Shown: positions 33,034-46,264, counted from the stretch's first letter. The stretch is DNA of 64,000 bases from an uncultured Chloroflexia bacterium (GCA_963707215.1 CAVPPB010000001.1:64001-128000); one strand, 5' to 3'. Translations and numbers: made by a program. Notes: generated by a model not told the origin, from the sequence alone.

Positions 33034-33615
33034 TCAGGCGCGCCCGAGCTCGCGGACGGTCCGCGAGATGCGCAGGACGAGGGTCGGGATCGACAGGACG
33101 ACGATCAGGACGCAGACCCAGGTCAGGTCGAAGGTGACGAAGGTCCGGATGCCCGCGGCGACGAGGACGATGGCGATCCGGTCGGGCTGCCCGGCCGGGC
33201 CCACCGGCTGCGGCGACCCCCCGGCGATCGCCGGCAGCACGGCGCAGACGTTGACCAGCCAGGCCGAGCCCAGGAGCAGGACCAGCCAGGCCGGATCGAC
33301 CCACGGCCACAGTCCCAGGAACAGGGCGATGTCCCCGATCTCCTGGGGCAGCCGGTTGAGGTAGGGTCCGATCCGGGTCTTCTTCCCGTAGGCCTCGGCG
33401 AGCAACCCGTCCATGACCGTGAGGGCCATCCGGCCGAGGATCCCCATGATGACGAGCGGCCACCAGCCGAACCACAGGCTCACGGCCGCCAGGCCCGATG
33501 GGACGAGCGAGGCCAGGGAGACCGCGTTGGGGCTCAGCCGCTCGACCCCGGGGATCCGGTCGAGCCAGCGACGGAGCGCGTACTTGGTCTGGTACAGCCC
33601 GATGTCGGGGCTCAT
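33034..33615 (-). CDS. CDP-alcohol phosphatidyltransferase family (YnbA-like)
   Basis: LYQTKY, SPNAVS, DGLLAE...GPYLN...GD, GPAGQPDR; multiple TM segments. Confidence 0.8.
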   Translation of the reverse strand: MSPDIGLYQTKYALRRWLDRIPGVERLSPNAVSLASLVPSGLAAVSLWFGWWPLVIMGILGRMALTVMDGLLAEAYGKKTRIGPYLNRLPQEIGDIALFLGLWPWVDPAWLVLLLGSAWLVNVCAVLPAIAGGSPQPVGPAGQPDRIAIVLVAAGIRTFVTFDLTWVCVLIVVLSIPTLVLRISRTVRELGRA

Positions 33616-34325
33616 CGGTCACCTCCCTCCTGCGACACGTCGAGTCGACCGTGGCGGTCCCAGAACGCGAGCAGGTCTGCCGAGAGCGCGCGTCCGTCGA
33701 CGGTGTCGATCGGATCGCCGAACGTGACCCGGATCGTCCGGAACGGCCGCCAGTACGCGCGGCCCACGGGCCAGGCCTCGGCGGTCCCGGCCAGGCCGAC
33801 CGGCAGGACCGTCCAGCCCGCATGGGCGAGCACGCCGGCCAGCCCGATGTGCGGCTCGAGACGCTTCCGGCTCCCGCTCGGGTAGATGAGGAACCAGCCG
33901 GCCTCGATCGTGGGCAGCAGGCGGGCCCAGCGGCGGAGCTCGGCCAGCTCGGCGCCCCGGTCGAAGGCCGCCGCCTGCCCGAAGAGGCTGGCGGCGATCG
34001 CGGCAGCCCGTCGCTCGAAGAAGTAGTCGCGGGCCGCCAGCACCGTGATCCGCCGTCGGTAGCGCTCCGGCAGGACCGCCAGGATGGCCATCGTGTCGAG
34101 GTGGCTCTGGTGGTTCGGCATCAGGGCGAGGCGAGGCACGTCGGGTACCGACCCGACGACCTCCAGGCGGAACTGGGCCCGGAAGAAGGCGGCCGCGGCG
34201 CGCCGACCCAGCGCCCGGGCTGTGTCGTACAGCAGGTCCGGCTGGCGCGGGTACTGCCCCAGGCGTGCCGCAAGTGGCAGCTCGAGGTCCGGGAACGGTT
34301 CGTACTCGAACCTGGCACCGCTCAT
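33612..34325 (-). CDS. Lysophospholipid acyltransferase (PlsC family)
   Basis: NHQSHLD, AARDYFF, YPSGSR, VLPVGLAG; ATGA overlap. Confidence 0.85.
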   Translation of the reverse strand: MSGARFEYEPFPDLELPLAARLGQYPRQPDLLYDTARALGRRAAAAFFRAQFRLEVVGSVPDVPRLALMPNHQSHLDTMAILAVLPERYRRRITVLAARDYFFERRAAAIAASLFGQAAAFDRGAELAELRRWARLLPTIEAGWFLIYPSGSRKRLEPHIGLAGVLAHAGWTVLPVGLAGTAEAWPVGRAYWRPFRTIRVTFGDPIDTVDGRALSADLLAFWDRHGRLDVSQEGGDR

Positions 34326-35278
34326 TCCGGGAACCCGCCGAAGAGATAGCCCATGAAGTGGGCGAACGCCGGCGCCGTGACCATGAGCGAGTTGAGGCGA
34401 TCGGTCAGACCGCCGTGGCCCGGCAGGATCGCCCCGAAGTCCTTGACCCCGGCATTGCGCTTGACGTTGGCCATCGTGAGGTCGCCGACCTGTCCGCCGA
34501 TCGTGATGATCAGCCCGGCCGCCAGGACGCCGAGCGGCGGCACCCAGGGGAAGGCGATCGGGGCCTGGAGGAACGTCAGGACGACGATCGTCACGCCGGC
34601 CAGGAGCGAGCCCTCCAGCGTCTTGTTCGGGCTGATCGGAGTCCAGCGACGCCGCCCGACGGCCTTGCCGTAGATGAACTGGAGGGCGTCGTTCAGCTGC
34701 GTCATCAGCAGCACGAACAGGAGGTAGCCGAGCCCGAGCGATGACGCGTAGAGATAGCTCAGGTGGGCCAGGAAGTAAGCGAAGAAGATGACCCCGACGA
34801 CCGAGAGGGCGAACCACTGGAGCATCCCGTCGGTCCGGCGGAGGACGATCGGGACCAGGGCCAGGGCGAGCACGGCCCACGTCGGGATCGCCATGAACAC
34901 GTCGTAGCGCCCCACGAAGGCGAAGACGTTCTCGGCGATGACGGCGCCGTAGACGAGGACGACGAAGAGCCGCTGCCGGTAGAGCCCGGTGACCCGGGCG
35001 TACTCCTTGAACGCCAGGATCGACACCACGGCGACCAGGACCGTCCAGGCGCCCTGCCCCAGCCACATCGCCCCCAGGGCGATCGGCAGGATGAGGAACC
35101 AGGTCCGCAGCGGGATCCAGGCACCTGGGATGCGAAGGACCGCCAGGAGGACGCTCGTGACGGCGACCGTGGCGATGGCGGCCACCGTGTAGAAGCGGAG
35201 GGGGTCGCCCGTCAGCTCGTCGAGTCCCACGCGGTCCTCCGGCACGTCGTCCGGGCGCCCGGGCCGGCGGTCAGCCAC
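34322..35278 (-). CDS. Phosphatidate cytidylyltransferase (YnbB/CdsA family)
   Basis: TQLNDALQFIYGK, ISPNKTLEG, GDL..KRNAGVKDFGAILPGHGGLTDRLNS. Confidence 0.92.
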   Translation of the reverse strand: MADRRPGRPDDVPEDRVGLDELTGDPLRFYTVAAIATVAVTSVLLAVLRIPGAWIPLRTWFLILPIALGAMWLGQGAWTVLVAVVSILAFKEYARVTGLYRQRLFVVLVYGAVIAENVFAFVGRYDVFMAIPTWAVLALALVPIVLRRTDGMLQWFALSVVGVIFFAYFLAHLSYLYASSLGLGYLLFVLLMTQLNDALQFIYGKAVGRRRWTPISPNKTLEGSLLAGVTIVVLTFLQAPIAFPWVPPLGVLAAGLIITIGGQVGDLTMANVKRNAGVKDFGAILPGHGGLTDRLNSLMVTAPAFAHFMGYLFGGFPE

Positions 35279-35423
35279 CGACGGCCGGCCGGACGCTCGT
35301 CATGGCGACGCACGTGCCCGCGTCGTGTTGCACGGACCGATCACTGGGCCACAGCCGACGGCCCCGGCCCGAGCGGATGCCGGAGGCGACCCGAGGGGCG
35401 CCGTGGGTCAGGCGCGCTGGAGG

Positions 35424-36143
35424 TCAGGCGCGCTCGCCGGCTCGACGCAGGAGGACCAGGGCCACGCCACCGCCGATCAGGGCGACCGAGCCGATCGGGA
35501 TCCACGGCATCCCGGGGCCATCGCTTTGCTGGCCGGCGGCGTCCACGCCGTTGGGGCGGACCTCAGCGGGACCCTCGTCCGTACCGCCGCCGCCCATAGG
35601 AGCAGGCGGCGGGGTAGCGGCCGTGTCGACCTCCGGGGCCGCCGGCTCACCGCCGAACTCGCCCTGCGTGTCCCGCTCCGAGCCCGCGCCGGCACCGTCA
35701 CCGACAGGCGCTCCGACGGTGGACAGGATGACCTGCGGGTCCGGGACGACGGCCGTGAGCATGAGGCCCGCGAGCCCGACCGTCGCCAGCCCGACGCCCA
35801 GGGGCCGGGCGAAGGCGAGGCGAGGAGCCCCGAAGCCCGCGACGATGCGTCGCCAGCCGCCGGGCCGGAGCCGCACGGCCTGCTCCTCGGTCAGCCGGAA
35901 GTCACGGGGTCGTACCGGCGACGGCAGGGCGCGGGTCGCCGAGGCGATCGCGACGAGATCCACGTAGACCTCCCCGCAGGCCGGACAGGCGGCCACCAGG
36001 GATCGAGCGTCGTCGAGCTCCGGGCCGGTCAGGTCGTCGGCCGAAAGCGCGGCCACCAGGGTGAGGTCGTGGTCGGTGTGGAGGGTCGTGGTCACGTTCG
36101 TCTGACGCCCCATCTCCGGTCCCGGTTCCCGCCGCCCGCTCAT
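35424..36143 (-). CDS. Membrane-anchored anti-sigma factor (ZAS-like)
   Basis: ATGA-coupled to the ECF sigma; CPAC, PVRPRDFRLT, TM segments. Confidence 0.75.
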   Translation of the reverse strand: MSGRREPGPEMGRQTNVTTTLHTDHDLTLVAALSADDLTGPELDDARSLVAACPACGEVYVDLVAIASATRALPSPVRPRDFRLTEEQAVRLRPGGWRRIVAGFGAPRLAFARPLGVGLATVGLAGLMLTAVVPDPQVILSTVGAPVGDGAGAGSERDTQGEFGGEPAAPEVDTAATPPPAPMGGGGTDEGPAEVRPNGVDAAGQQSDGPGMPWIPIGSVALIGGGVALVLLRRAGERA

Positions 36144-36805
36144 CGGTCGCCCCGGAAGAGATCGAGCCGCGGCTCGAGGACGGCGCGCAGGGCCAGCCGT
36201 CCCCGGTGGATCCGTGACTTCACGGTCCCCAGCGAGACGCCGGTGAGCTCGGCGATCTCGGCATAGTCGTAGCCCTCGACGTCGAAGAGGACGATCGCCG
36301 TTCGCTGGTCGGCCCCGATCCTGGCCAGGGCATCGGCCAGGGCGCGGGATCGCTCGGCCGCGACCACGACCCGCTCCGGATCCTCCGACGCGTCGGCCGG
36401 TGGCTGCCAGCTCTCGTCCTCCAGCTCCGGGTACGGCTGAGCGGGCCGCCGCTTGCGGTAGCGCTGGGTGTCCATGGCCGCGTTGATGGCGATCCGCCCC
36501 AGCCATGACCGGACGCTGCCGCCGCGGAAGGACCGCAGGTTCCGGTAGGCGCTGAAGAACGCCTCCTGGACGGCGTCGGCGGCCTGGTCCCGGTCCGGAA
36601 CGAGCCGGGCGACCAGCCCGTAGAGGTGGTCCTGGTGGAGCTCGACGAGGTCGTTGAAGGCGTCGAGGTCGCCGTCCCTGGCACGCTCGACGAGCCACAG
36701 GTCGCGACGCCGGGCCACGTCGTCGCCGGGCGAGGGCACGCGACGATCGTCAGCCAGCGGCGGGTCCCTCCGGACGGGGATGGCAAGGCGGGCCGAGTCT
36801 AGCAT
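36140..36805 (-). CDS. ECF RNA polymerase sigma factor (start uncertain)
   Basis: GDLDAFNDLV, DAVQEAF, SWLGRIAINAAMD, YAEIAELTGVSLGTVKSRIHRGR. Confidence 0.93.
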   Translation of the reverse strand: MLDSARLAIPVRRDPPLADDRRVPSPGDDVARRRDLWLVERARDGDLDAFNDLVELHQDHLYGLVARLVPDRDQAADAVQEAFFSAYRNLRSFRGGSVRSWLGRIAINAAMDTQRYRKRRPAQPYPELEDESWQPPADASEDPERVVVAAERSRALADALARIGADQRTAIVLFDVEGYDYAEIAELTGVSLGTVKSRIHRGRLALRAVLEPRLDLFRGDR

Positions 36806-36920
36806 CGGGTCTGCGCTACTCGACGCGCCTCGGCGCGCCTCGGTTCCCTGGCTCGTCCTCGACGCGGCCCGGAGCCCCCGGCCGCGGGCACGGGCAGACG
36901 GGCGCTACGATGAGCGTCCG

Positions 36921-37007
36921 GCCGGAGTGGCGGAACTGGCAGACGCGTCGGTCTCAAACACCGATGAGGGCAACCTCGTGCGGGTTCAAATCCCGCCTCC
37001 GGCACCA
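36921..37007 (+). tRNA. tRNA-Leu (anticodon CAA)
   Basis: GCCGGAG/CTCCGGC acceptor stem, TGG D-loop, tcggt-ctCAAac-accga anticodon arm, long variable arm, GGTTCAAATCC, encoded CCA. Confidence 0.97.
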
Positions 37008-37025
37008 GCGTTTCGTGCGTGAAGA

Positions 37026-37056
37026 GTGAGGGCCCGGCCGTTGGCCGGGCCCTCAC
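37026..37056 (+). terminator. 14-bp hairpin after tRNA-Leu
   Basis: gtgagggcccggcc-gtt-ggccgggccctcac. Confidence 0.7.
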
Positions 37057-37200
37057 GACTGGCCGAGGTGTAGCCAAACTGAGTCTTGCTGACCACCACG
37101 GCCCTCGCTCCGGGCCGGCTGGCGCGATCTCGCTGACCCAGGGGGGAAGGCGACCAGCCCACGGCCGGGCGACGGGGGCCGTCTACGGGCGCGCTGCCTC

Positions 37201-37229
37201 TTGCAGGACGCGTTACACGACGTCACCGT
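37201..37229 (+). promoter_or_regulatory. Putative sigma70 promoter of cassette A
   Basis: TTGCAG-N17-CACCGT, ending about 10 nt before riboswitch P1. Confidence 0.55.
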
Positions 37230-37239
37230 GCCCCCATGC

Positions 37240-37314
37240 GCGGGGGGCAGTGACGCGCGGCCAATCGCCTACGGCCGCCGGGACCGCGCCGAGCCACTGG
37301 CGAGACCGACCCGC
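37240..37314 (+). ncRNA. c-di-GMP-II-like (GAG variant) riboswitch, copy A
   Basis: P1 GCGGG/CCCGC, kink-turn TGACG..GAG, P3 CGCGG/CCGCG, pseudoknot CGG-C-CGCC with GGCG-AGA-CCG. Confidence 0.8.
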
Positions 37315-37396
37315 TGGAAACCGGATCCGCAAGAGGACCGGCCAAGTTCGATCAGGCTGAGATGGGCCTTCGGCATCAGGCGGTGAGAGGACTGCG

Positions 37397-37765
37397 ATGA
37401 CGACTGAGCGATCTCGTCTGACCGCCGCACTGTCTCTGGCGGTCGCGGTCGTCGTGATCGTCGTCAGCCCGATGCTGCTCGACGCCCCGAACCCGCTGTC
37501 GACGCCCGCTGCGGTGATCGTCGCGGTCGGCTGTGGCGGTGCGTTGCTCGGTGGGCGTGGCGCTGAGTGGGTCGCGTTGGCCGTCAGCGTGGCCGGGCTC
37601 GTGTTGTCCGTCCTGTGGCTCTGGCTCGCGAGCGATGGCTTCGGGCAGGGCACGCCCTGGTGGGACGACATCGTCGAGGCCGCGATCCTCGCTGCGGCAT
37701 TCCTCGTCGCGCTCGCCTTCCTGCTGCTTGCACGTCGGCAACGAGCACGGTCGCGAGCGACCTGA
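37397..37765 (+). CDS. Small 4-TM membrane protein (cargo A)
   Basis: RBS GAGAGG; four hydrophobic segments and a basic tail. Confidence 0.7.
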   Translation: MTTERSRLTAALSLAVAVVVIVVSPMLLDAPNPLSTPAAVIVAVGCGGALLGGRGAEWVALAVSVAGLVLSVLWLWLASDGFGQGTPWWDDIVEAAILAAAFLVALAFLLLARRQRARSRAT

Positions 37766-37971
37766 CCGCGCACAGCACCACCGCCGTCAAGGTCGCCTGG
37801 CAGCGTCTTCGGGTAGCCCGCGACGAGCGCGGCACTAACCCTCGCCCCAGCCCCGGCTCCACGTGTCGCCCTCGATCACGGCCTCGCCGTCCAGAGGAGC
37901 GGCAGCGTCCGGGGTCAGTTCGGGACCGCCGCCTCTAGGCAGTAGGTAGGCGTCACGCATCCTCCTGGCCT

Positions 37972-38050
37972 GGGCGAGAGGCCCTGACGCGCGGCCAATC
38001 GCCTCTGCCCGCCGGGACCGCGCCGAGCCACTGGCGAGACCGACCCGCCC
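37972..38050 (+). ncRNA. c-di-GMP-II-like riboswitch, copy B (pseudoknot partly mutated)
   Basis: Near-identical to copy A; ACGGCCGCC changed to CTGCCCGCC; invariant 24-nt block at 38025-38048. Confidence 0.72.
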
Positions 38051-38073
38051 TAGGTTTAGGGGAGGGCGCCCCG

Positions 38074-38187
38074 ATGGGCAGATCCTCGTGGGCGGCCGTG
38101 CCAGCCGCCCTCACACCTCCGGTGGCCGCCGGTCTCCTGCTCGCGACGGTAGTGGTGGGCGCCGAGTACCGACCCCCCGGGTCCTGA
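38074..38187 (+). pseudogene. 37-aa signal-peptide remnant (cargo B)
   Basis: GGAGG RBS then MGRSSWAAVPAALTPPVAAGLLLATVVVGAEYRPPGS-stop. Confidence 0.45.
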
Positions 38188-38221
38188 CCAGCCCGCGGCC
38201 GGGCGACGGGAGCCGCTCGGC

Positions 38222-38824
38222 CTACCGAGCGCGACGATGTCGCTGGGAGCGTCGGTTGGCCGTCAACCCGAGCCCGGCCATCAGCGCCAGGAGACCAAGC
38301 CCGGCCGGTCCCCGCGGCGGTGATGGCTGACGGGCCGCGGCGGCGGTATCGGTCTCTGGCAGGACGGCGAAGCGATGGGTGACCGTGACCGAGTAGTCGC
38401 TCGAGCCCATGACGACGACATCGCTCCAGATGACCCGCTGCCCGTAGGTCTCGCCGCCATCGGCATCGGCATAGAAGCCGATCGACCAGCGGTACTCGAC
38501 CCGCGCCCCAGGCGGGACGGGGAACGACACCACATAGATCCGGCCGTTCTCGCAGGGCGGTGGCAGGTAGGGACCTCCCGGGTAGTCGGCCTGGACCGAC
38601 TTTGGCTCGCAGATGGTGGTGCCGGACGTTCCCTCCTCGTGCATGAAGAAGACGTTCGCCGGGACGGGGCCTCTGAGGGCCAGGCGCAGCGTCAAGGTGG
38701 GCCAGTCCGACTCGGCGGTCGCGACCGCGACGGTCTGGGCCGCGGCTGACGGCACCTGGCTCAACAGCAGGGCGACGCCGCACGCAAGTAGGGCCAACCG
38801 CGCCGTCCATCGATGAGCGCGCAT
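38222..38824 (-). CDS. Secreted protein with C-terminal LPETD + TM + basic-tail sorting-like signal
   Basis: Signal peptide ..VPSAAA; C-terminus VLPETDTA...GLGLLALMAGLGL..RRSQRHRRAR. Confidence 0.75.
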   Translation of the reverse strand: MRAHRWTARLALLACGVALLLSQVPSAAAQTVAVATAESDWPTLTLRLALRGPVPANVFFMHEEGTSGTTICEPKSVQADYPGGPYLPPPCENGRIYVVSFPVPPGARVEYRWSIGFYADADGGETYGQRVIWSDVVVMGSSDYSVTVTHRFAVLPETDTAAAARQPSPPRGPAGLGLLALMAGLGLTANRRSQRHRRAR

Positions 38825-38933
38825 CGCTCGTCATCCCTCCGGATGAGTTGAAGCCATGGCTTGAAGCTCGTGGATGAGACGCGCACAGCCGGCCAGCGTG
38901 AGCACAAGCCCACAGCCACCCCCGCCGGCCGCT

Positions 38934-39006
38934 CAGGCCCTCGGTCTCTTGCCCGGTACGTTCCACGACCGGCACCCTCGACGCCATAGCGCGGGGGGTG
39001 CTGCGC
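38934..39006 (+). promoter_or_regulatory. Cassette leader copy C: promoter plus only the first ~15 nt of the riboswitch
   Basis: CAGGCCCTCGG..TTGCCC-N18-CACCCT..GCCATAGCGCGGGGGGTGCTG matches leaders D and E, then diverges. Confidence 0.75.
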
Positions 39007-39056
39007 TCTCTCCTGCCAGCCCGCCTCGCGACGAGGCGTCCCGGGAGGCAGCGACA

Positions 39057-39596
39057 GTGCGCGGCATCCTGCGAACGATTGCCGTCACGCTTGCGACCGC
39101 GACGCTCACCGGGGTCGCTCTTCTCGGCGATGCTCCGCCCGCCTAGGGCGAGGAGCTTGGGCTGGGCGGGCCGAGCCGCGTCGTCGGCGTGACATACGTG
39201 CAGCCACAGTGCGGCGATGCCATCTTCGCCGGCGACTCGGTCGGCTCGGTTCGCATCCAGAGGCCCTTCTCGGAGGCCCACCAGAACTACGACGGGATCT
39301 ACATCACATATAGGTTCAAGGGGCCGTGGTGCCTGATCCAGCCCGACCTGTTCTGGTCGATCTACCTGACGACCGATACGCACCCGAGAACCAGGCTCCA
39401 GAACTTCAACATGCCCTGCAGCGGCTCTCGGGATCGCGAGTACGAGTCGACCATCTATCTCCGATACCTTGGCATCGACTACACAGAGGCTGAGCTCTTC
39501 GCCGAGACCGTGACATTCGAGGTCCACCTCGAGGGCGACGACGGCTTCTCGGGGATCTGGGCGCCCTTCATGGTTGGATCGAGTCCGAGCGAGTAG
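39057..39596 (+). pseudogene. Secreted protein (cargo C) with in-frame TAG at 39144-39146
   Basis: GGGAGG RBS, GTG start, signal peptide VRGILRTIAVTLATATLTGVALLGDAPPA-stop-G, continuing in frame into ORF 39189-39596. Confidence 0.65.
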
Positions 39597-39725
39597 CCCG
39601 CCGCTCCACCGCCCGCGCCTCCAGCCCGTCCCAGAACGCCGAGGTGGCGCGCTGGCGGCCCTCGGCCCCGGCCTGCGCCTCCCAAGGCCGCCACGGCCGC
39701 CTCGGCCGCCTCCGGGGGCGTATCC
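39597..39725 (-). pseudogene. Small conserved ORF family, copy S1 (5'-truncated, frameshifted)
   Basis: TPPEAAEAAVAA/WEAQAGAEGRQRATSAFWDGLEARAV. Confidence 0.65.
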
Positions 39726-39733
39726 GGCTGGAC

Positions 39734-39775
39734 GAGATCGCTATCCGGCCACGGAGCCGGGGGCGAGCGACACCC
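39734..39775 (-). repeat. ~40-nt hairpin element H1
   Basis: Minus strand GGGTGTCGCTCGCCCCCGGCTCCGTGGCCGGATAGCGATCTC; matches 45051-45089. Confidence 0.75.
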
Positions 39776-39783
39776 TAGGTGGT

Positions 39784-40158
39784 TCACCTGGTCGAGAGCC
39801 ACCATCCGGCGGCGCACCCGGCGGAATAGGCGAGCACCCCGGCTGTGCCCGCGATGAGCCAGTAGGGGTAGAGGTCGGGGTCGACCCGGCCGACGACGAG
39901 GGTCCACAGGTGGGGAAAGACGGTAAAGGCAAGCCAGCCGCCGAGGGCACCCGCGATCGCGGCCCAGATCGTCCGGCCACCCCACCGGGCAGTGGCTGCC
40001 CCGACCATGACGGCCAGCAGGGGCGGAAGGGCGAAGAGCACCAGCGCGCCGAAGCTGAGCATGAGGGCCGGAAGCTCGAAGAGCGCCGCCCAGCCGGCCA
40101 CGGCGACCGCCGTTCCGATCGAGCCGATCACAAAGGCCCGGCCGGTGCCGATCGCCAT
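39784..40158 (-). CDS. Small 4-TM membrane protein
   Basis: MAIGTGRAFVIG...; four hydrophobic segments. Confidence 0.65.
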   Translation of the reverse strand: MAIGTGRAFVIGSIGTAVAVAGWAALFELPALMLSFGALVLFALPPLLAVMVGAATARWGGRTIWAAIAGALGGWLAFTVFPHLWTLVVGRVDPDLYPYWLIAGTAGVLAYSAGCAAGWWLSTR

Positions 40159-40271
40159 GGCCCAACGGTCGCCGTCACCGCTGCCTGCGAGCGGGCTGAC
40201 CCCTTGTGACTTCATCTCGGAAGGGTTGACGCCGCAGGCGACGAACCGTTGCACGAGCCAGCCCGCGGCCA

Positions 40272-40367
40272 GGCGACGGCGTCCGTTCAGGCCCTCGGCC
40301 TCTAGACCCGTACGTTCCGCGACCGGCACCCTGACCGCCATAGCGCGGGGGGCGCTGACGCACGGTC
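40272..40367 (+). repeat. 96-nt leader shared with 44173-44268 (4 mismatches), including the TAGACC-N18-CACCCT promoter
   Basis: Direct manual alignment. Confidence 0.92.
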
Positions 40368-40423
40368 GATGAGCCACGGCCGCCCAAGACGACCCTGCTG
40401 AGCCACTGGCGAGACCGACCCGC
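40345..40423 (+). ncRNA. c-di-GMP-II-like riboswitch, copy D
   Basis: GCGGG..TGACG..ACGGCCGCC..GAGCCACTGGCGAGACCGACCCGC, ~10 nt before the RBS. Confidence 0.8.
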
Positions 40424-40442
40424 CTGCCCGAGAGATGGAGTC

Positions 40443-41603
40443 TTGCGCATGCACAGGCGACTGTTCGCCGGCGCCATCGCGGTCTTGGCAACGCTGGCAA
40501 TCGCTTCGCCGGCGGTCGCTGCACCGCCGGCCAACGACACCTACTCCGGCCGGGAGTTGCTCCTCGACCCGCTGCCGATCATGGTCATGGCGGATACCAC
40601 CGAGGCAACCACTGACGCAGACGACGCCGAGCTGGATGTCCAGTGCGGTGCGTCGGCGGTCGATGCTAGCGTGTGGTACGAGTACACGCCCACGCTGGCC
40701 GGCGACTACGAGATCAACACCCTCGCCTCGGACTACAGCGTCGGCGCGATCGTGGCCATCGGCGGCCCGGGCGGCTGGACCCTGTTGAGTTGCGGTCCCG
40801 GGACCATCCCCTTCACTGCGATCGCCGGGGAGACGTACGCGATCCTGATCTTCGACGACCAGACCGACGGAGGCGGCAACGGCGGCTATCTGGAGTTCTC
40901 GATTGCGCCGGTGGTGCCGAACGAGCCGCCGGTGGCCGACCCGAACGGGCCGTACCTGGGCGCGGTTGGTGCCGCGATCTCGTTTGACGGCACTCGATCG
41001 TCGGACCCCGAAGGCGACACGCTCACCTACGACTGGGACTGGGGCGACGGCACGTCCTCTACTGACGTTGGGTCCACGCCGACCCACACCTACGATGCCG
41101 CCGGCATCTACGACGTGTGTCTGACGGTGACCGACCCATCCGGCGCATCGGGTAGGGCCTGCACGTCGGCCGTCGTCTACGACCCGTCGGCTGGGTTCGT
41201 TACCGGCGGCGGCTGGATCGACTCGGTGGCCGGCGCATACGTGCCCGACCCGACGCTGACAGGCAAGGCGACCTTCGGGTTCGTGTCCAAGTACACGAAG
41301 GGCGCCGCTACCCCGACCGGCAACACCGAATTCGTGTTCCAGACCGCCGACCTCAACTTCCATGCGACGAGCTACGACTGGCTGGTCGTGACCGGCAGCG
41401 ACTACGCCCGCTACAAGGGCATCGGCACGATCAACGGCACGGGCGACTACAAGTTCCTGCTGTGGGCCGGCGACAACGACCCGGACACGTTCCGGATCAA
41501 GATCTGGACCGAAGACGCGGCCGGCGTCGAGGCCGTCGTCTATGACAACGGGATGGATCAGCCCATCTCGGGCGGCAGCATCGTCGTCCACACCAAGAGG
41601 TAG
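40443..41603 (+). CDS. Secreted PKD-domain surface protein (cargo D)
   Basis: Signal peptide, APPANDT, ASVWYEY, PKD (NEPPVAD..SSDPEGDTLTYDWDWGDG..HTY), C-terminal GFVTGGGWI domain. Confidence 0.88.
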   Translation: MRMHRRLFAGAIAVLATLAIASPAVAAPPANDTYSGRELLLDPLPIMVMADTTEATTDADDAELDVQCGASAVDASVWYEYTPTLAGDYEINTLASDYSVGAIVAIGGPGGWTLLSCGPGTIPFTAIAGETYAILIFDDQTDGGGNGGYLEFSIAPVVPNEPPVADPNGPYLGAVGAAISFDGTRSSDPEGDTLTYDWDWGDGTSSTDVGSTPTHTYDAAGIYDVCLTVTDPSGASGRACTSAVVYDPSAGFVTGGGWIDSVAGAYVPDPTLTGKATFGFVSKYTKGAATPTGNTEFVFQTADLNFHATSYDWLVVTGSDYARYKGIGTINGTGDYKFLLWAGDNDPDTFRIKIWTEDAAGVEAVVYDNGMDQPISGGSIVVHTKR

Positions 41604-41605
41604 GA

Positions 41606-41735
41606 GCGACCGCCCACGCGTCCAGATCCGCCCAGAACGCCGAGGTGCCGCGCTCACGGCCCTCGGCGTCCCCTCGCACCTCCCAGGCCATCATCGCCGC
41701 CACGGCCTCCCCGGCAGCCTCCTGGGTGCATGCGC
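41606..41735 (-). pseudogene. Small conserved ORF family, copy S2 (degenerate)
   Basis: QEAAGEAVAAMMAWEVRGDAEGRERGTSAFWADLDAWAV. Confidence 0.6.
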
Positions 41736-42000
41736 GGTCGCGTGGACGGGGCGACCCTGGAAGACCGCGCTCTACTCCGGGCGCTCTCCTGGCTCCTCAG
41801 CCCGGAGGCCTCGGGCCTGCTCGCCTCCCACGGGTCCGGTGGTCGCATCCCGAGCCCAGTTGGTCGGATCCATCAGGCGAGAGAACCGCGCACCCAGCGC
41901 AGCCAGGCCGCCAGCACTCAGCGCGGCTAGCTCCTCATCGGCTTGGGCGCGATCCGCCTGCTGCTGCAGTGCTTCGTCGACGGCGATGAGCGCTTCGGAC

Positions 42001-42225
42001 ATGGCCTCGGCCGACCAGCCGTTCACGATCCGCTTCGCCAACAACGACGCTGGGGTCCCCCACAACGCCGAGATCAAGGACGGATCCGGAGCGACGGTCT
42101 TCCTGGGCGAGATCTTCAACGGCGTCGACACCCGCGACTATGCCGTGCCGGCGCTGCCGGCCGGGACCTACACCTTCGTCTGCACGGTCCACCCGAACAT
42201 GACCGGCACCCTGACGATCGGATAG
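42001..42225 (+). pseudogene. Cupredoxin domain fragment lacking the N-terminus and signal
   Basis: FTIRFANND..PHN...GTYTFVCTVHPNMTGTL type-1 copper ligands; no RBS or export signal upstream. Confidence 0.7.
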
Positions 42226-42280
42226 GCGACCAGCCCGTCCCCTGGGTTGCCCTCGACGTGACACTTGGATACGAATCCAC

Positions 42281-42703
42281 GTGCACGGGAGGATCGCCTT
42301 GGAGATCGCGCTCGCCGGCTTGCTCACCCTGGCGGTGCTGACGCCGGTCGCCATGTACGTGCTTCGGCGTCTCGATGAGCCAGGGCCGTCGGCGTACGCC
42401 GATCCGATGGATTCCGTCTACAGAGCGAACGCGACGGTCGATGAGCTGCTACCGACGTATGCGGCCCTCGGGTACGCGGTAGTCTCCCGCTCCGAGTTCC
42501 AGGCTCACCTCTTCCGGACCGAACCAAGCCACAAGAGGGACTCGAGCCGGAACCGACCACGAGAGATTCGACTCCACACTGACTTCACCGACAATGTCTG
42601 GGCCGACGGTCGGGGCGCCGTCTGCCCTGTATGCGGCCATCCGCGCCGTGGCGAATTCCGCTGCGCGAGGTGCAAGTCGAGCGAGACGGGACTTCCAGCG
42701 TGA
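42281..42703 (+). CDS. Membrane-anchored hypothetical protein with C-terminal zinc ribbon
   Basis: N-terminal TM; CPVC...CARC. Confidence 0.55.
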   Translation: MHGRIALEIALAGLLTLAVLTPVAMYVLRRLDEPGPSAYADPMDSVYRANATVDELLPTYAALGYAVVSRSEFQAHLFRTEPSHKRDSSRNRPREIRLHTDFTDNVWADGRGAVCPVCGHPRRGEFRCARCKSSETGLPA

Positions 42704-42934
42704 TGGACCTTCGCTGGAGGGTGACTGGCGGTTCACCAAGCGGGAGTCGCGACCGGCCAAGGCGGCTGCCAAGGGCTTCCACCTAGCCTCCCGCCACGGC
42801 CCCCGCTTCCCAGTACGCCCCATCGCCGCGCTGGCGGCCCTCGGCCTCGGCCAGAGCGGATCCGTCGTTTCGTCGTTCATCAGGGGCATCGTAGTCTGGC
42901 GCGGGCTCGGCCAGCCGGAGACGGGGGCGGCCGA

Positions 42935-43528
42935 CTAGACCTTCCCGACCGCGGCCGTGCCCACCGAGATGGTCGGTTCGCGGAACGGGCTGCGGTCCGC
43001 GAGCCGGGTGAACGTCACCGTGACGAGCACGGAGCCCTTCAGGAAGTACCCACGCTCCAGATCGTCGACCCAGAGGGCGCCATCGCCGATGTCGAGCGCC
43101 TCCGCTCGGTCAGCCAGCGCCTGCTTGGTGTCGGCGAACGTGTTGGCCCCGTTGCCGGGCTCGACCATCACCGACAAGCCACCCCAGTCCTCGACCCAGC
43201 GACATTCGGTCACATTCGGATCCTGGTCGGATCCGAGCCGGTTGAGGTCACCGTCAGTGGCGCTGGCGGCGTCCAGGCCCAGGGCCGCGGCGACGTCAGC
43301 GGCGGTGACCAGCTGACACGCGGTCAGGTCGGTGCCCGGGGCCGCCGGGGCACCCCCACTCTCGTTCTCGCCGGTGCCCTCGCTCGCCTCGGCCTCGGGC
43401 GATGACGTGGCCGAGGCCCCACTCGGGGCGCTGGTGGTCGCCGCACCGCCGCAGCCCGCGGTCGCGAGCAGCACGCTCAGGACGATCGTGGCGGTCGTAC
43501 GACCGCCGATTACGTGGACGCTCAACAT
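42935..43528 (-). CDS. Lipoprotein (DUF3558-like)
   Basis: Lipobox LATAGC, Ser/Ala linker, ACQLVTAADV..CRW, DIGDGALW. Confidence 0.75.
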   Translation of the reverse strand: MLSVHVIGGRTTATIVLSVLLATAGCGGAATTSAPSGASATSSPEAEASEGTGENESGGAPAAPGTDLTACQLVTAADVAAALGLDAASATDGDLNRLGSDQDPNVTECRWVEDWGGLSVMVEPGNGANTFADTKQALADRAEALDIGDGALWVDDLERGYFLKGSVLVTVTFTRLADRSPFREPTISVGTAAVGKV

Positions 43529-43750
43529 CGCGCCACCCCCTTCTCCTGCATCGTGGGCGGCACCAGTCGAAGCGCCGCCGGCCGGGACCTACGGAGAGCT
43601 GCCTCGACCTCGCAGGCGTCCCTCGAATCGTACGACCAAGCACCAGCCCCTCCAGGGCCTAACACCCGGTGGCGAGGTGACCGACAGGCCGTTCCGGGCG
43701 CAACACTCGAGCCCGATGGGCGTCATCCCGCTGATCGAAGGAAGGTGCCG

Positions 43751-43990
43751 ATGTCCCTTGGCTGTTCCGGGCGGGCGGCGATCTTCGCGCTCGTCCTCCT
43801 CGTCGGCGCGCTGCCCGCTGGGGTGATCGCGGGAGCCGTGCCAGGCCGGATCGTTGGGCTGCTACAGCGGCGTGGGGCCGTTCCTCCTCCTCGTGGTGGT
43901 CGTGGTTGCCGCGGCTCTGATCGCGGCCTCACTCCCCTGGGCGAGAGGACGAGCCCGGATGGACGCTGGCCGCTGCATCGCCCGCGACCG
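43751..43990 (+). pseudogene. Small membrane protein remnant (frameshifted)
   Basis: GAAGGAAGGT RBS; hydrophobic segments in two frames. Confidence 0.3.
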
Positions 43991-44245
43991 CAACGGCTTC
44001 GAGGGCATCCTCGAGGCCGGCCACGTCGGTCCCCATGCGGCCTCCAGGGTGATCCGGAGCTGGGTCGACGAGCCCACGCCGCCCACCGAGAAGGAGTCGG
44101 CAGGCGTACTGGCCGAGGAAGCCACGACGGCAACCCCGGACCAACCCCACGGTCCTGACAAGCCCACGACCGGGCGACGCCGTCCGTTCAGGCCCTCGGC
44201 CTCTAGACCCGTACGTTCCACGACCGGCACCCTGACCGCCATGGC

Positions 44246-44324
44246 ACGGGGGGCGCTGACGCACGGTCCCAGAGCTACGGCCGCCTGAGCGGACCGTGCC
44301 GAGCCACTGGCGAGACCGACCCGC
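44246..44324 (+). ncRNA. c-di-GMP-II-like riboswitch, copy E
   Basis: P3 CACGGTCC/GGACCGTG, ACGGCCGCC loop, invariant 3' block at 44301-44324. Confidence 0.82.
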
Positions 44325-44368
44325 TGGACCCATCCGCAACGACGCGGAAGCTCGGGAGGAACACGGTC

Positions 44369-45022
44369 ATGGGTTCGGTCTCGCACTTGCGGCGCTGGCG
44401 CCTCGTCGTCGGCATCATGATCCTGAGCCTATTCGCGATCCCGGCAGCGGGCATCGTGGTCGGCGCCACGACGCCCTTCCAGCAGGTCATCGTGACCAAC
44501 CCCGAGGAGAGTCCAATCCCCGTGTCGCTGACGGGCAGCAACGCGATCTCGGGCACCGTCACTGTCGGCAACCTGCCCGCGACCCAGCCCGTCTCGGGGA
44601 CGGTAAACGTGGGGAACAGCCCGACGGTGCAACTCGCCTCCGACTCGATAGTGGCCGTCGTCAACCCGACAGACGACCAGCCGCTTCTGGTTCAGGAGGT
44701 TGCTTCGGCGACGCCGTCACCCGCGGAGATCCTGCCACCGACTGGCAACACCATCATCGGCCCTGCCCGGCTCCAGATGGACTCCGTTGGCACATATCCA
44801 ATCCTGAGGGGCACGGTGTCGCTCGACTTCTGCATCACGGTCGTTCTCCTCGATGCCAACGGCTACGCGGAATTCCAAGCGAACCCGACCAGTGATTCCA
44901 CCTGGTACGGCATCTGGCCCGATGGCCCATTGGCAAGGTGTGAGGCGAGCAAGCAGAACGCCAACATCGACAATCATGTGGCCGGGACAGCTCTGGTCTA
45001 TCGCATCGACAGAATCCCCTAA
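44369..45022 (+). CDS. Secreted hypothetical protein (cargo E)
   Basis: GGGAGG RBS; signal peptide; QVIVTNP..PIPV, SGTVTVGN/SGTVNVGN repeats. Confidence 0.75.
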   Translation: MGSVSHLRRWRLVVGIMILSLFAIPAAGIVVGATTPFQQVIVTNPEESPIPVSLTGSNAISGTVTVGNLPATQPVSGTVNVGNSPTVQLASDSIVAVVNPTDDQPLLVQEVASATPSPAEILPPTGNTIIGPARLQMDSVGTYPILRGTVSLDFCITVVLLDANGYAEFQANPTSDSTWYGIWPDGPLARCEASKQNANIDNHVAGTALVYRIDRIP

Positions 45023-45050
45023 CGATTGGGGCCGAGCCGTCACCTCCCAG

Positions 45051-45089
45051 GGGTGTCGCTCCCCGGCTCCGTGGCCCGCTAGCGATCTC
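45051..45089 (+). repeat. ~40-nt hairpin element H2
   Basis: GGGTGTCGCTCCCCGGCTCCGTGGCCCGCTAGCGATCTC, about 30 nt after the cargo E stop. Confidence 0.75.
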
Positions 45090-45322
45090 CCACCGAGTAG
45101 CACCGCGACGACAACGTCCTGCCTGCGCCACGGTTCGGACATAGCCCGACGCTAGCCCTTGCTCAGAGGCACGCCGATGCGGATGTCCCGCAACCAGGGC
45201 GACCGGCCCAGGGAAGGGACGCGGGCCGTTGCGTCGACGCACCGGGTTCGCAGGCCCTCAGGCCGGCTGGTCGAGGATCGCGGGCTGCGTCTGGAGCACC
45301 GGTGGCCTACGCTCGGGGCATC

Positions 45323-45402
45323 GGCGGGAGGCACTGACGCAAGATCCGAGCCCACGGCCGCCGCACCGGACCGCGCCGAGCCACTGGCGAGACCGACCCG
45401 CC
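45323..45402 (+). ncRNA. c-di-GMP-II-like riboswitch, copy F
   Basis: GGCGGG/CCCGCC P1, TGACG, ACGGCCGCC, invariant block at 45378-45401; TACGCT -10 at 45308-45313. Confidence 0.8.
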
Positions 45403-45425
45403 CGTCTTACCCTGGAGGTGGCGGT

Positions 45426-45977
45426 ATCCGCAGGATCGGTCTCGTCGCGCTGGTGGTGCTCGCCTTGATGGCGTCCGCGACGATCGTCTCGGCCGACAAC
45501 GGCAAGGCGGTCCCCGGCTGGAACTCGAACTCCAGCAAGTACACGGCCATCTCGGTCGCCAACCCCAACGACCCGAGCGAGGTGTCGGCCACCCTGGTCC
45601 GCGAGCGAACCTCCGACGCGGTCCTCGACCAGCACATCACGGCCCTCAACAACTGTGACTGGGCCGGGCTGATGCAGCAGTACCCCGATCAGTACGAGCT
45701 GCGACTCCCCGGCGGGGTACTCGTCTCCGGTCGGGAGGAAGCGGCCGAGACGTTCGCCGGCTTCGTCAAGCCATACACCGAGGGCGGGCTCTGCGGGATC
45801 ATCTTCAGCGAGGTCTCCCGCGATGTCGTCGCCGGCACCCTGGCGGTGAGCTGGGTCGCCGATGCCCCCTTCCTGGCTGAGCCGTACTACGGCGCGGACG
45901 CCTACATCACCGACGACGGCCTGATGGTCTCGATGGTCAGCACCTTCGACGGCGCGGAGCTGGTCTTCGCTCCCTAG
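45426..45977 (+). CDS. Secreted NTF2/SnoaL-like protein (cargo F), apparent ATC start
   Basis: GGAGGT, 6 nt, then ATC-RRIGLVALVVLALMASATIVSA; VLDQHITALNNCDW..GRE..DAYITDDGLMV. Confidence 0.75.
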   Translation: MRRIGLVALVVLALMASATIVSADNGKAVPGWNSNSSKYTAISVANPNDPSEVSATLVRERTSDAVLDQHITALNNCDWAGLMQQYPDQYELRLPGGVLVSGREEAAETFAGFVKPYTEGGLCGIIFSEVSRDVVAGTLAVSWVADAPFLAEPYYGADAYITDDGLMVSMVSTFDGAELVFAP

Positions 45978-46159
45978 GCCGTCCTGGACGCGAAGAACGC
46001 CGGGGTGCCGCGCCCTCGGCCCTCGGCCTCAGCCAGCCCCTCCCAGGCCGCTACGGCCTCCTCGGCCGCCTCCGGGGGCATCCGGGCGACATCGCGCAAC
46101 CGGGCGACTTGGGCGGCCCGGGGGGCCTGGTGGATGCGCTCGGGATCGCGACGTCGCAT
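45974..46159 (-). CDS. Small conserved ORF family, copy S3 (61 aa, most complete)
   Basis: MRRRDPERIHQAPRAAQVARLRDVARMPPEAAEEAVAAWEGLAEAEGRGRGTPAFFASRTA. Confidence 0.65.
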   Translation of the reverse strand: MRRRDPERIHQAPRAAQVARLRDVARMPPEAAEEAVAAWEGLAEAEGRGRGTPAFFASRTA

Positions 46160-46264
46160 GGCGGCGCGGTCGGGCCCGGGGGTTGACCTGCCGCTTGACG
46201 CGAGGCGGACGATCCCATCAGCGGCGACCTGCCCCGGGCATCGACGATCGACGAGGACCCTTCG

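Follow-up and report, generated by a model that had tools for sequence, protein, structure and literature searches.

Immediately to the right of a tRNA-Leu gene in the genome of an uncultured Chloroflexia bacterium lies an array of short gene units, most of which are headed by a riboswitch of the c-di-GMP-II-GAG class (c-di-GMP, cyclic dimeric guanosine monophosphate) followed by an unrelated gene, here called the cargo, for an exported or membrane protein. The array is located in a 64,000-nt stretch of contig C1 (GCA_963707215.1, CAVPPB010000001.1:64001-128000), which is referred to here as the window and in which positions are counted unless another contig is named. In our reading, the array is probably a tRNA-linked accessory islet of riboswitch-controlled single-gene units that has been reshuffled by recombination between shared flanks. 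Ordinary homologous recombination, together with past integrase-mediated insertion of islets at tRNA genes, suffices to explain it, and no new mechanism is needed. An initial annotation of the same region had proposed an integron-like logic instead, in which conserved flanks capture surface-protein genes, and its individual claims are taken up below where the results bear on them.

The source genome, named G000, is a metagenome-assembled genome (MAG) of a soil Chloroflexota of the Limnocylindrales type with 3.26 Mb in 5 contigs and a completeness of 84.8%. Because the window has a guanine plus cytosine (G+C) content of 71.5%, real genes were told from spurious frames by their codon-position G+C. 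Aptamers were identified with Rfam covariance models (RF03169, gathering score 40 bits), recurring blocks in G000 were defined with BLAST and nhmmer, and the significance of clustering and of tRNA proximity was assessed with 20000 random placements each.

Riboswitch leaders of the array

Five full-length c-di-GMP-II-GAG aptamers, named A, B, D, E and F, were detected by Rfam in the array, all on the + strand and all covering model positions 1-86 with scores of 55.3-63.5 bits. Of the six c-di-GMP-II-like leaders on this strand listed in the initial annotation, these five are confirmed, whereas leader C is aptamer-less and gave no Rfam match even at E<=1. The leaders and the adjacent tRNA gene are located as follows (the U element is described further below):

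36921-37007, + strand: tRNA-Leu(CAA), left edge of the variable region
37234-37320, + strand: leader A, c-di-GMP-II-GAG aptamer, Rfam 63.5 bits
37968-38054, + strand: leader B, aptamer, Rfam 55.3 bits
38923-39059, + strand: leader C, aptamer-less, named C-type
40256-40428, + strand: leader D, composed of U 3' box, upstream block and aptamer (40339-40428, Rfam 57.5 bits)
44157-44328, + strand: leader E, composed of U 3' box, upstream block and aptamer (44240-44328, Rfam 62.3 bits)
45318-45407, + strand: leader F, aptamer only, Rfam 57.0 bits

The start codons are found 14-76 nt past the aptamers A, B, D, E and F on the same strand, where aptamer B serves only a remnant of 37 amino acids (aa). 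Five of the 17 aptamers of the 3.26-Mb genome are thus situated inside 8.2 kb, a density that was reached in 0 of 20000 random placements. The array is not unique, since its building blocks recur at 16 loci of the genome.

Leaders D and E are equal at 147 of 164 positions (90%), and the figure of 92 identical positions in the best 96-nt window, which had been reported previously, was reproduced exactly. Nevertheless, they head non-homologous genes, one for a PKD-domain protein and one for an unknown protein. Aptamers A and B are 90% identical over 78 nt, with the likeness confined to the aptamer, and the variable aptamer loops are alike within the pair A/B and within the pair D/E. The closest copies of leader F are C1:740191-740268 (91%) and C3:153509-153587 (90%). 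Leader C is built from the upstream block, about 19 nt of aptamer start as in D and E, a substitute segment of about 45 nt and a Shine-Dalgarno site. The C-type leader has 5 copies in two species, 2 in G000 and 3 in its sole congener G001, whose alignment extends over about 140 nt and reaches the GTG start and the first codons. The description of the cargos as mutually unrelated genes with signal peptide or transmembrane (TM) starts agrees with our checks of the single cargos, of which C contains an in-frame TAG and B is only a remnant.

Mosaic structure and shared flanks

Adjacent segments of the window match best at different loci of G000. Positions 39219-39728 correspond to C3:399052-399559 (96%), 39793-40427 to C3:182263-182901 (77%), 42003-42220 to C2:327163-327380 (97%) and 43937-44258 to C3:154512-154832 (96%). 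Since orthologous flanks of G000 and G001 are 82-92% identical, the patches with 96-100% identity must have been copied after the split of the two species. In the segment C3:154.5-154.9k, E-like sequence on the left (96%) gives way to C-type sequence on the right (90%), which places a crossover inside the shared leader.

Three C-type units have the same small open reading frame (ORF) on the opposite strand behind the cargo, and homology between them resumes about 20-30 nt past the cargo stop codon. These flanks enclose cargo C in the window, a 179-aa secreted protein at C3:154887 and a 136-aa lipoprotein-like protein in G001:C270, among which BLASTP detected no similarity (best E-value 2.2). 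A comparison of the cargos with tblastx gave short multi-frame matches only, as is typical of high-GC sequence, and BLASTP was used instead. The unit formulated in the initial annotation, a leader followed by a variable cargo and a convergent small ORF, is therefore well founded, as homologous flanks surround three cargos without detectable similarity. The gene fragments described between the modules were found as well, namely the 3' fragment of a cupredoxin-like gene and partial small ORFs.

The comparison with the congener supports a variable region that begins at the tRNA. Homology with G001 spans 33039-37015 and ends 8 nt after tRNA-Leu, where G001 has a D/E-type leader in place of the U element and leader A. 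Only one gene inside the array (38222-38824, - strand) matches G001 at the DNA level, and a protein search with cargos D, E and F gave matches in G001 for D and F, at the domain level only. The cargo content of the array thus differs from that of the congener G001. No protein encoded to the right of tRNA-Leu is shared with the genomes G005, G011 or G012. In G001:C270 (L041 2323-4761), an array of U, C-type leader, cargo, small ORF, A-type leader and U is found beside tRNA-Val(TAC). As the nearest module of G000 is about 2.6 kb away from tRNA-Val(TAC), the arrays seem to occupy different positions in the two species.

A mosaic of this kind could be an assembly artefact in which strain variants were chimerically joined at short repeats. 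The source genome is a MAG with a completeness of 84.8%, and the identity of the patches of about 96% is within the range of strain variation, which is in favour of this explanation. On the other hand, the repeats of the array are short, with a length of no more than 164 nt and a similarity of only 75-90%, the genome is assembled in only 5 contigs, and the independent congeneric MAG G001 bears the same modules, including 14 U matches. In addition, an unrelated sediment sequencing run, which contains 5% of the sampled words, yielded Logan contigs of 151-260 nt only. Some of these, 151-194 nt long, are identical to cargos C, D and E, and none of the contigs spans a junction. An artefact is therefore regarded as very improbable.

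The U element and the small convergent ORF

Two blocks upstream of the aptamers recur in G000, the 86-nt element U with 14 copies and a promoter-like block of about 60 nt with 15 copies. In the window, U or a half of it is found at 37097, 38186, 39728, 40256, 44157 and 45048, i.e. at nearly every unit junction, and the inverted repeat of the initial annotation (39728-39782 and 45048-45089) corresponds to the U 5' half. The copies that are not part of leaders D and E are:

37097-37182, + strand: U element, genus-specific repeat of unit junctions, only full 86-nt copy in the window
38186-38215: U 3' box copy, 30 nt, at the end of the cargo B remnant
39728-39782, - strand: U 5' half, inverted, 100% to C3:185808-185862
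45048-45089, + strand: U 5' half

At 7 places, only the 3' part of U is present (about position 51-56 through 86), and partial copies start at varied positions (about 26-56). The element is confined to the genus, with 14 matches each in G000 and G001 and none in 59 other genomes of the family at E<=1e-5, and a metagenome search with the 29-nt U 3' box returned one 1022-nt contig. Folding revealed no stable structure, as the single-strand z-scores of -1.5 to +1.3 (5 folds) were no better than those of shuffled sequences, and RNAalifold found no covariation among the 14 copies (term +0.24, double change in 2 of 17 pairs). A hairpin of the attC type or of the type of miniature inverted-repeat transposable elements is rejected on account of this missing fold and covariation. 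U is thus conserved in sequence and not in structure, and since its 3' 30-35 nt are placed about 20 nt upstream of a hexamer resembling a -35 box, a role of this part in activator binding or as a UP-type element is possible.

The small convergent ORF had been described after cargos C, D and F. It was found at these three positions and, in addition, as a fourth short copy, most of the copies being decayed:

39598-39743, - strand: small ORF copy 1, frameshifted
41609-41763, - strand: small ORF copy 2, no proper start or stop
42808-42857, - strand: small ORF copy 3, short remnant
45974-46159, - strand: small ORF copy 4, open 61-aa frame, C-terminally short of the family of about 70 aa, its stop overlapping the stop of cargo F

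G000 contains 7 copies and one short copy, of which only C3:185889-186110 looks intact, and 6 of these 8 copies are immediately convergent to a leader-headed cargo. The ORF encodes a real protein family with 78 homologues of about 70 aa and conserved R, A, E and W positions; one named source lists it as a hypothetical protein of a Candidatus Limnocylindrales bacterium. No family was found for it in Pfam, NCBIfam or PHROG. The AlphaFold model is helical (predicted local distance difference test, pLDDT, 79), with a best E-value of 2.2 in a Foldseek search against the PDB and no usable match in the ESM Atlas. The family is present in 8 of 61 genomes of the bacterial family. Outside the genus, a riboswitch is near the small ORF at only 1 of 11 loci (in G033), and the ORF is therefore not generally tied to the leaders there. 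A scan of genome contigs with the closer subset of homologues located it at 3 places in two Chloroflexi MAGs, and Rfam detected neither a riboswitch nor a tRNA within 6 kb of them. A function as excisionase or recombinase, which was considered, is unsupported, as the ORF has no family, no fold match and mostly decayed copies. In our interpretation, the copies in the window are remnants that were carried along with a duplicated unit and mark its 3' edge; they are not taken for a recombination factor.

Linkage to tRNA genes and integration footprints

When U, the promoter-like block, the small ORF and the aptamers are merged, they form 16 loci in G000. The genome has 52 tRNA genes, and seven of the loci are no more than 2.5 kb away from one of them, compared with a random mean of 1.3 and a single trial in 20000 that reached 7. 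Six of the seven are on the tRNA 3' side. At two of the loci, parts of the tRNA gene are repeated. The 3' half of tRNA-Gly(CCC) (C1:717584-717659) and about 35 nt of its downstream flank recur at C1:722381-722457, with 54 nt exact and about 78 nt at about 95%. Between the two copies lies a 4.7-kb islet that comprises a riboswitch unit and three ORFs of 517 aa, 396 aa (secreted) and 186 aa and lacks an integrase. For tRNA-Pro(TGG), it is the 5' half with its upstream flank that recurs, 1.5 kb upstream (36 nt, 94%; C3:1299042-1300703), and the repeats enclose one leader and one 147-aa cargo, the smallest islet seen. Furthermore, an orphan 3' half of tRNA-Gly(CCC), 91-95% identical to the copies on C1, is found at C3:1266187-1266264 beside a U element and a riboswitch unit, where ARAGORN calls no tRNA.

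A third type of footprint is a phage-type tyrosine integrase that is split over three frames (C3 about 399.9-401.1 kb; L033:8377-9598) and converges on tRNA-Lys(CTT). Next to the remnant is a module locus in which 5 U copies, a small ORF and a copy of cargo C at 96% identity occur; beyond tRNA-Lys(CTT), an ORF was recognised by eye as DUF262-like. Matches to PF00589 are limited to 4 at 3 places in G000, all on contig C3, which comprise two further, intact tyrosine recombinase genes (regions C3:167976-168521 and C3:219909-220382) besides the decayed integrase, while searches for rve and resolvase domains gave 0 matches.

The recurrence of U at the junctions and the position at tRNA genes are also what a true cassette system would explain, in which a site-specific tyrosine recombinase acts in trans at U or at tRNA-linked sites and forms integron-like arrays. 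U or its halves stand at nearly every junction of the window and the 3' part alone at 7 places, and cargos are swapped almost exactly from start codon to stop. Moreover, 7 of 16 loci are beside tRNAs, the 1.5-kb islet between the tRNA-Pro half repeats carries a single cargo, one locus adjoins a decayed integrase, and C3 has two more tyrosine recombinase genes. In its most specific form, this explanation describes an expression socket with a 5' leader (U box, promoter, riboswitch or aptamer-less variant, first signal-peptide codons) and a 3' convergent ORF of about 70 aa, between which unrelated exported-protein genes are swapped, and which is multiplied and carried from one tRNA 3' flank to another by a tyrosine recombinase in trans. 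If true, such a socket would be a riboswitch-equipped, integron-like way to build a surface repertoire controlled by a second messenger, but we consider this version unlikely.

The cassette system as such is given an equally low probability. Contig C1 has no recombinase, U shows neither a stable nor a covarying fold (z-scores and covariation as given above), and its partial copies begin at varied positions. The units have promoter blocks of their own, the array holds at least 3 minus-strand genes as well as gene fragments, and there are no direct repeats in the window. The part of the initial annotation that assigned an integron-like capture logic to the array is consequently not supported, since the leaders are distributed genome-wide (12 of 17 outside the array), the units apparently have their own promoters, and neither a recombinase on C1 nor a structure of U was found. 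The related idea that the flanks serve as recombination anchors is retained as far as crossovers inside the shared leader are concerned, but not with regard to a dedicated capture role, as neither a recombinase on C1 nor an attC-like structure was found.

Genome-wide regulon and putative promoters

G000 contains 17 aptamers above the cut-off and 3 weaker ones, distributed over C1, C2 and C3. Downstream of 18 of these 20 matches, at a distance of 5-85 nt, begins an ORF that has 50 aa or more and coding-type G+C, and 16 of the 18 ORFs have a hydrophobic N-terminus resembling a signal or TM segment, as judged by eye. Signalling by c-di-GMP is present in G000, because 11 GGDEF matches occur at about 10 places. 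The initial annotation had regarded leaders that are scattered without a link to the small ORF as an argument against its own proposal. They are indeed scattered, with 12 of 17 outside the array, and yet linked, as seen from the 6 of 8 small ORFs convergent to a leader-headed cargo.

The riboswitch class is widespread in the family, with matches in 14 of 18 other genomes and up to 25 per genome, as opposed to 1 of 12 genomes in a neighbouring small-genome family. In G005, a genome of another genus, a promoter of the form TTGACA-N17-19-(C/T)ATACC directly abuts at least 11 of 18 aptamers, counted by eye, and at the matching position G000 has CTCTTGCC or CTCTAGAC, 17 nt and CACCCT. By analogy with G005 and from the conserved upstream block, each unit appears to have its own promoter. 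G005 also has a repeat of its own of about 70 nt upstream of the aptamers, which occurs without aptamers as well, and one member of a G005 cluster scores best as the GCG variant RF03170 (L038:2801-2871).

The similarity of the leaders might be explained by a plain regulon, in which functional constraint keeps the leaders alike and the units are old, vertically inherited neighbours without special mobility. The numerous riboswitches across the family, the homologue of cargo D in another genus that is likewise headed by a riboswitch, and the repeat and promoter of G005 are consistent with this. However, non-functional parts are shared too, such as the decayed small ORFs, the U halves and the 96-100% patches across ORF fragments, and even the variable aptamer loops are common to A/B and to D/E. 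The enrichment of the loci at tRNA genes and a cargo content unlike that of the congener G001 also argue against old neighbours, and we consider this explanation quite unlikely.

Gene content of the array and its left flank

The genes and fragments between tRNA-Leu and the last small ORF are listed below:

37397-37765, + strand: cargo A, 122-aa multi-TM protein, no Pfam family over the cut-off
38074-38187, + strand: cargo B remnant, 37-aa hydrophobic ORF with Shine-Dalgarno site and ATG, ends where the U 3' box copy begins
38222-38824, - strand: 200-aa secreted-protein gene, convergent with leader B, G001 homologue with 73% aa identity
39060-39596, + strand: cargo C, signal-like start followed by a 150-aa domain, in-frame TAG at 39144-39146
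39784-40164, - strand: TM-protein gene, divergent from leader D, the pair with leader D duplicated at 77% (C3:182263-182901)
40443-41603, + strand: cargo D, secreted protein of 386 aa with a PKD domain (Pfam E 2e-22)
42003-42225, + strand: cupredoxin-like gene, 3' fragment, copper-site motif by eye, no Pfam match
42281-42703, + strand: 140-aa ORF without leader, no known family
42935-43528, - strand: 197-aa lipoprotein-like gene, weak DUF3558 match below the cut-off
44369-45022, + strand: cargo E, 217-aa protein with hydrophobic N-terminus, no family
45426-45977, + strand: cargo F, secreted SnoaL/NTF2-like protein with signal-like start, weak match (E 2e-4) below the cut-off

The product of the minus-strand gene at 38222-38824 ends with LPETD, a hydrophobic stretch and a basic tail, which we take to resemble a sortase sorting signal. 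As leader B faces this gene from the opposite strand, read-through from the leader would be antisense to it. The riboswitch-headed homologue of cargo D mentioned above is an N-terminal one in G002, while no homologue of cargo E was found in G001, G002, G005 or G014. The start of cargo F is uncertain, because the only well-placed start is an ATC after the Shine-Dalgarno site GGAGGTG and the next in-frame GTG would truncate the signal peptide; the ATC would be a rare start codon or else the result of damage to the start. Cargo F is paralogous to the C-terminal part of a 530-aa protein encoded at C1:49575-51167, another tRNA-linked locus. The cupredoxin-like fragment is 97% identical to C2:327163-327380 and 77-79% to three other copies and represents a recently copied gene piece.

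Directly left of tRNA-Leu, a gene for a sigma factor of the extracytoplasmic function (ECF) type is found on the minus strand (36140-36805; Pfam Sigma70_r2 and r4_2), which is kept beside the tRNA in all relatives examined. Downstream of it, the minus strand contains an ORF of no family (35424-36137).

Proposed mechanism

In the tRNA-linked islet that we consider probable, a unit would consist of the U 3' box, the promoter-like block, a c-di-GMP-II-GAG aptamer and a distinct gene for an exported or membrane protein. The aptamer would sense c-di-GMP or a close relative and gate translation initiation and/or read-through of the gene 14-76 nt downstream, and the islet would thereby add several exported proteins to one second-messenger regulon (5 of the 17 switches of the genome). 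While the class membership and position of the aptamers are observed, their function is predicted from sequence. The units and their flanks may have multiplied within the genus. Homologous recombination, with the leader, U and small-ORF blocks as shared sequence, would exchange the stretches between them, a process that is shown in part by the mosaic patches and the crossover inside the leader. The outcome would be unrelated cargos between identical flanks, units in partial decay and pieces of foreign genes. The units may also have travelled in the past on small integrase-delivered islets at tRNA genes, because the loci prefer the tRNA 3' flank, two of them have repeats of tRNA halves and a third has a decayed integrase. 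Integrative islets carried such units at the sister loci, and by analogy they may have done so in the window.

Several observations weigh against this interpretation. The window contains no direct repeat or copy of the tRNA-Leu 3' end, and contig C1 of the 84.8% complete genome gave no match to a tyrosine integrase, an rve transposase or a resolvase, both in agreement with the initial annotation, which had reported no integrase, transposase or tRNA 3' duplication. For the window, integration is therefore argued only by comparison with the sister loci. Not one of the 18 riboswitches of G005 has a tRNA gene closer than about 3 kb, so that the link to tRNA genes is a trait of this genus and not of the riboswitch class. 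As G000 is a MAG, the 96% patches could partly be strain chimeras, and the fragmentation of the sole congener G001, a MAG in 330 contigs, limits the comparison of loci. With regard to the putative promoter in front of each leader, the conserved upstream block and the analogous arrangement in G005 are in favour of the initial annotation, but a strict sigma-70 consensus scan gave 0 sites and did not accept the hexamers of the upstream block in G000, so that a separate promoter for each unit stays a putative assignment. Folding of the expression platforms of the leaders produced no clear ON or OFF model. To our knowledge, the ligand of the c-di-GMP-II-GAG variant is not established, and in the parts of the literature that were accessible, no ligand is documented and the name of the variant occurs only in lists of models.

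Comparison with known systems

The riboswitch family, the control of surface proteins by c-di-GMP-II switches, tRNA-linked islets and promoter reuse are all known already. The array resembles c-di-GMP-II regulons (Rfam clan CL00127) in that 5' leaders precede genes for surface or exported proteins in many copies per genome. In a review, tandem c-di-GMP-II riboswitches are described as mostly preceding a putative surface-anchor protein gene (PMC9481103), whereas the switches of the array are single, one per gene, with five units in 8.2 kb of a Chloroflexota host, and the leaders also share a genus-specific upstream block and U box.

Like an integron, the array is a series of small units that mostly hold a single gene each and differ in their unrelated cargo, and a short element recurs at the junctions. 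In contrast to integrons, there is no IntI or other recombinase alongside, and the junction element is conserved in sequence and not in structure as attC is. Moreover, the units apparently have a promoter and riboswitch of their own, with mixed orientation and gene fragments, instead of a common Pc promoter. As in tRNA-linked islands, the array is located at a tRNA 3' end where the synteny with the congener stops and variable content begins, and the sister loci have direct repeats of tRNA halves and a decayed phage-type integrase. The window differs from such islands in the absence of an integrase or direct repeat, and the islets are tiny (1.5-9 kb) and built on one recurring regulatory module.

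The reuse of promoters, including putative mobile promoters, has been described before (Nijveen, Matus-Garcia and van Passel 2012, PMC3575422). The leaders are comparable to them, as upstream regions of 80-164 nt with 82-96% identity stand before non-homologous genes within the genome and between two species. Unlike mobile promoters, the reused piece includes a riboswitch, has the small ORF as 3' flank in 6 of 8 cases and is concentrated at tRNA genes. It is this combination that is unusual: a riboswitch leader of roughly 170-250 nt is reused before many unrelated exported-protein genes, often accompanied by one common 3' flank, with a concentration next to the 3' ends of tRNA genes and signs of recent exchange.

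If site-specific mobility were true, the array would represent a new kind of gene-cassette system, but known processes explain the present evidence. The array is an unusually clear natural case of riboswitch-leader reuse that is tied to tRNA-adjacent accessory islets. At the same time, it offers a regulon of compact size for the GAG variant, of which little is understood, in an uncultured lineage of soil Chloroflexota. This regulon consists almost entirely of small exported or membrane proteins of unknown function and could help to find the ligand of the variant and the physiology that it controls.

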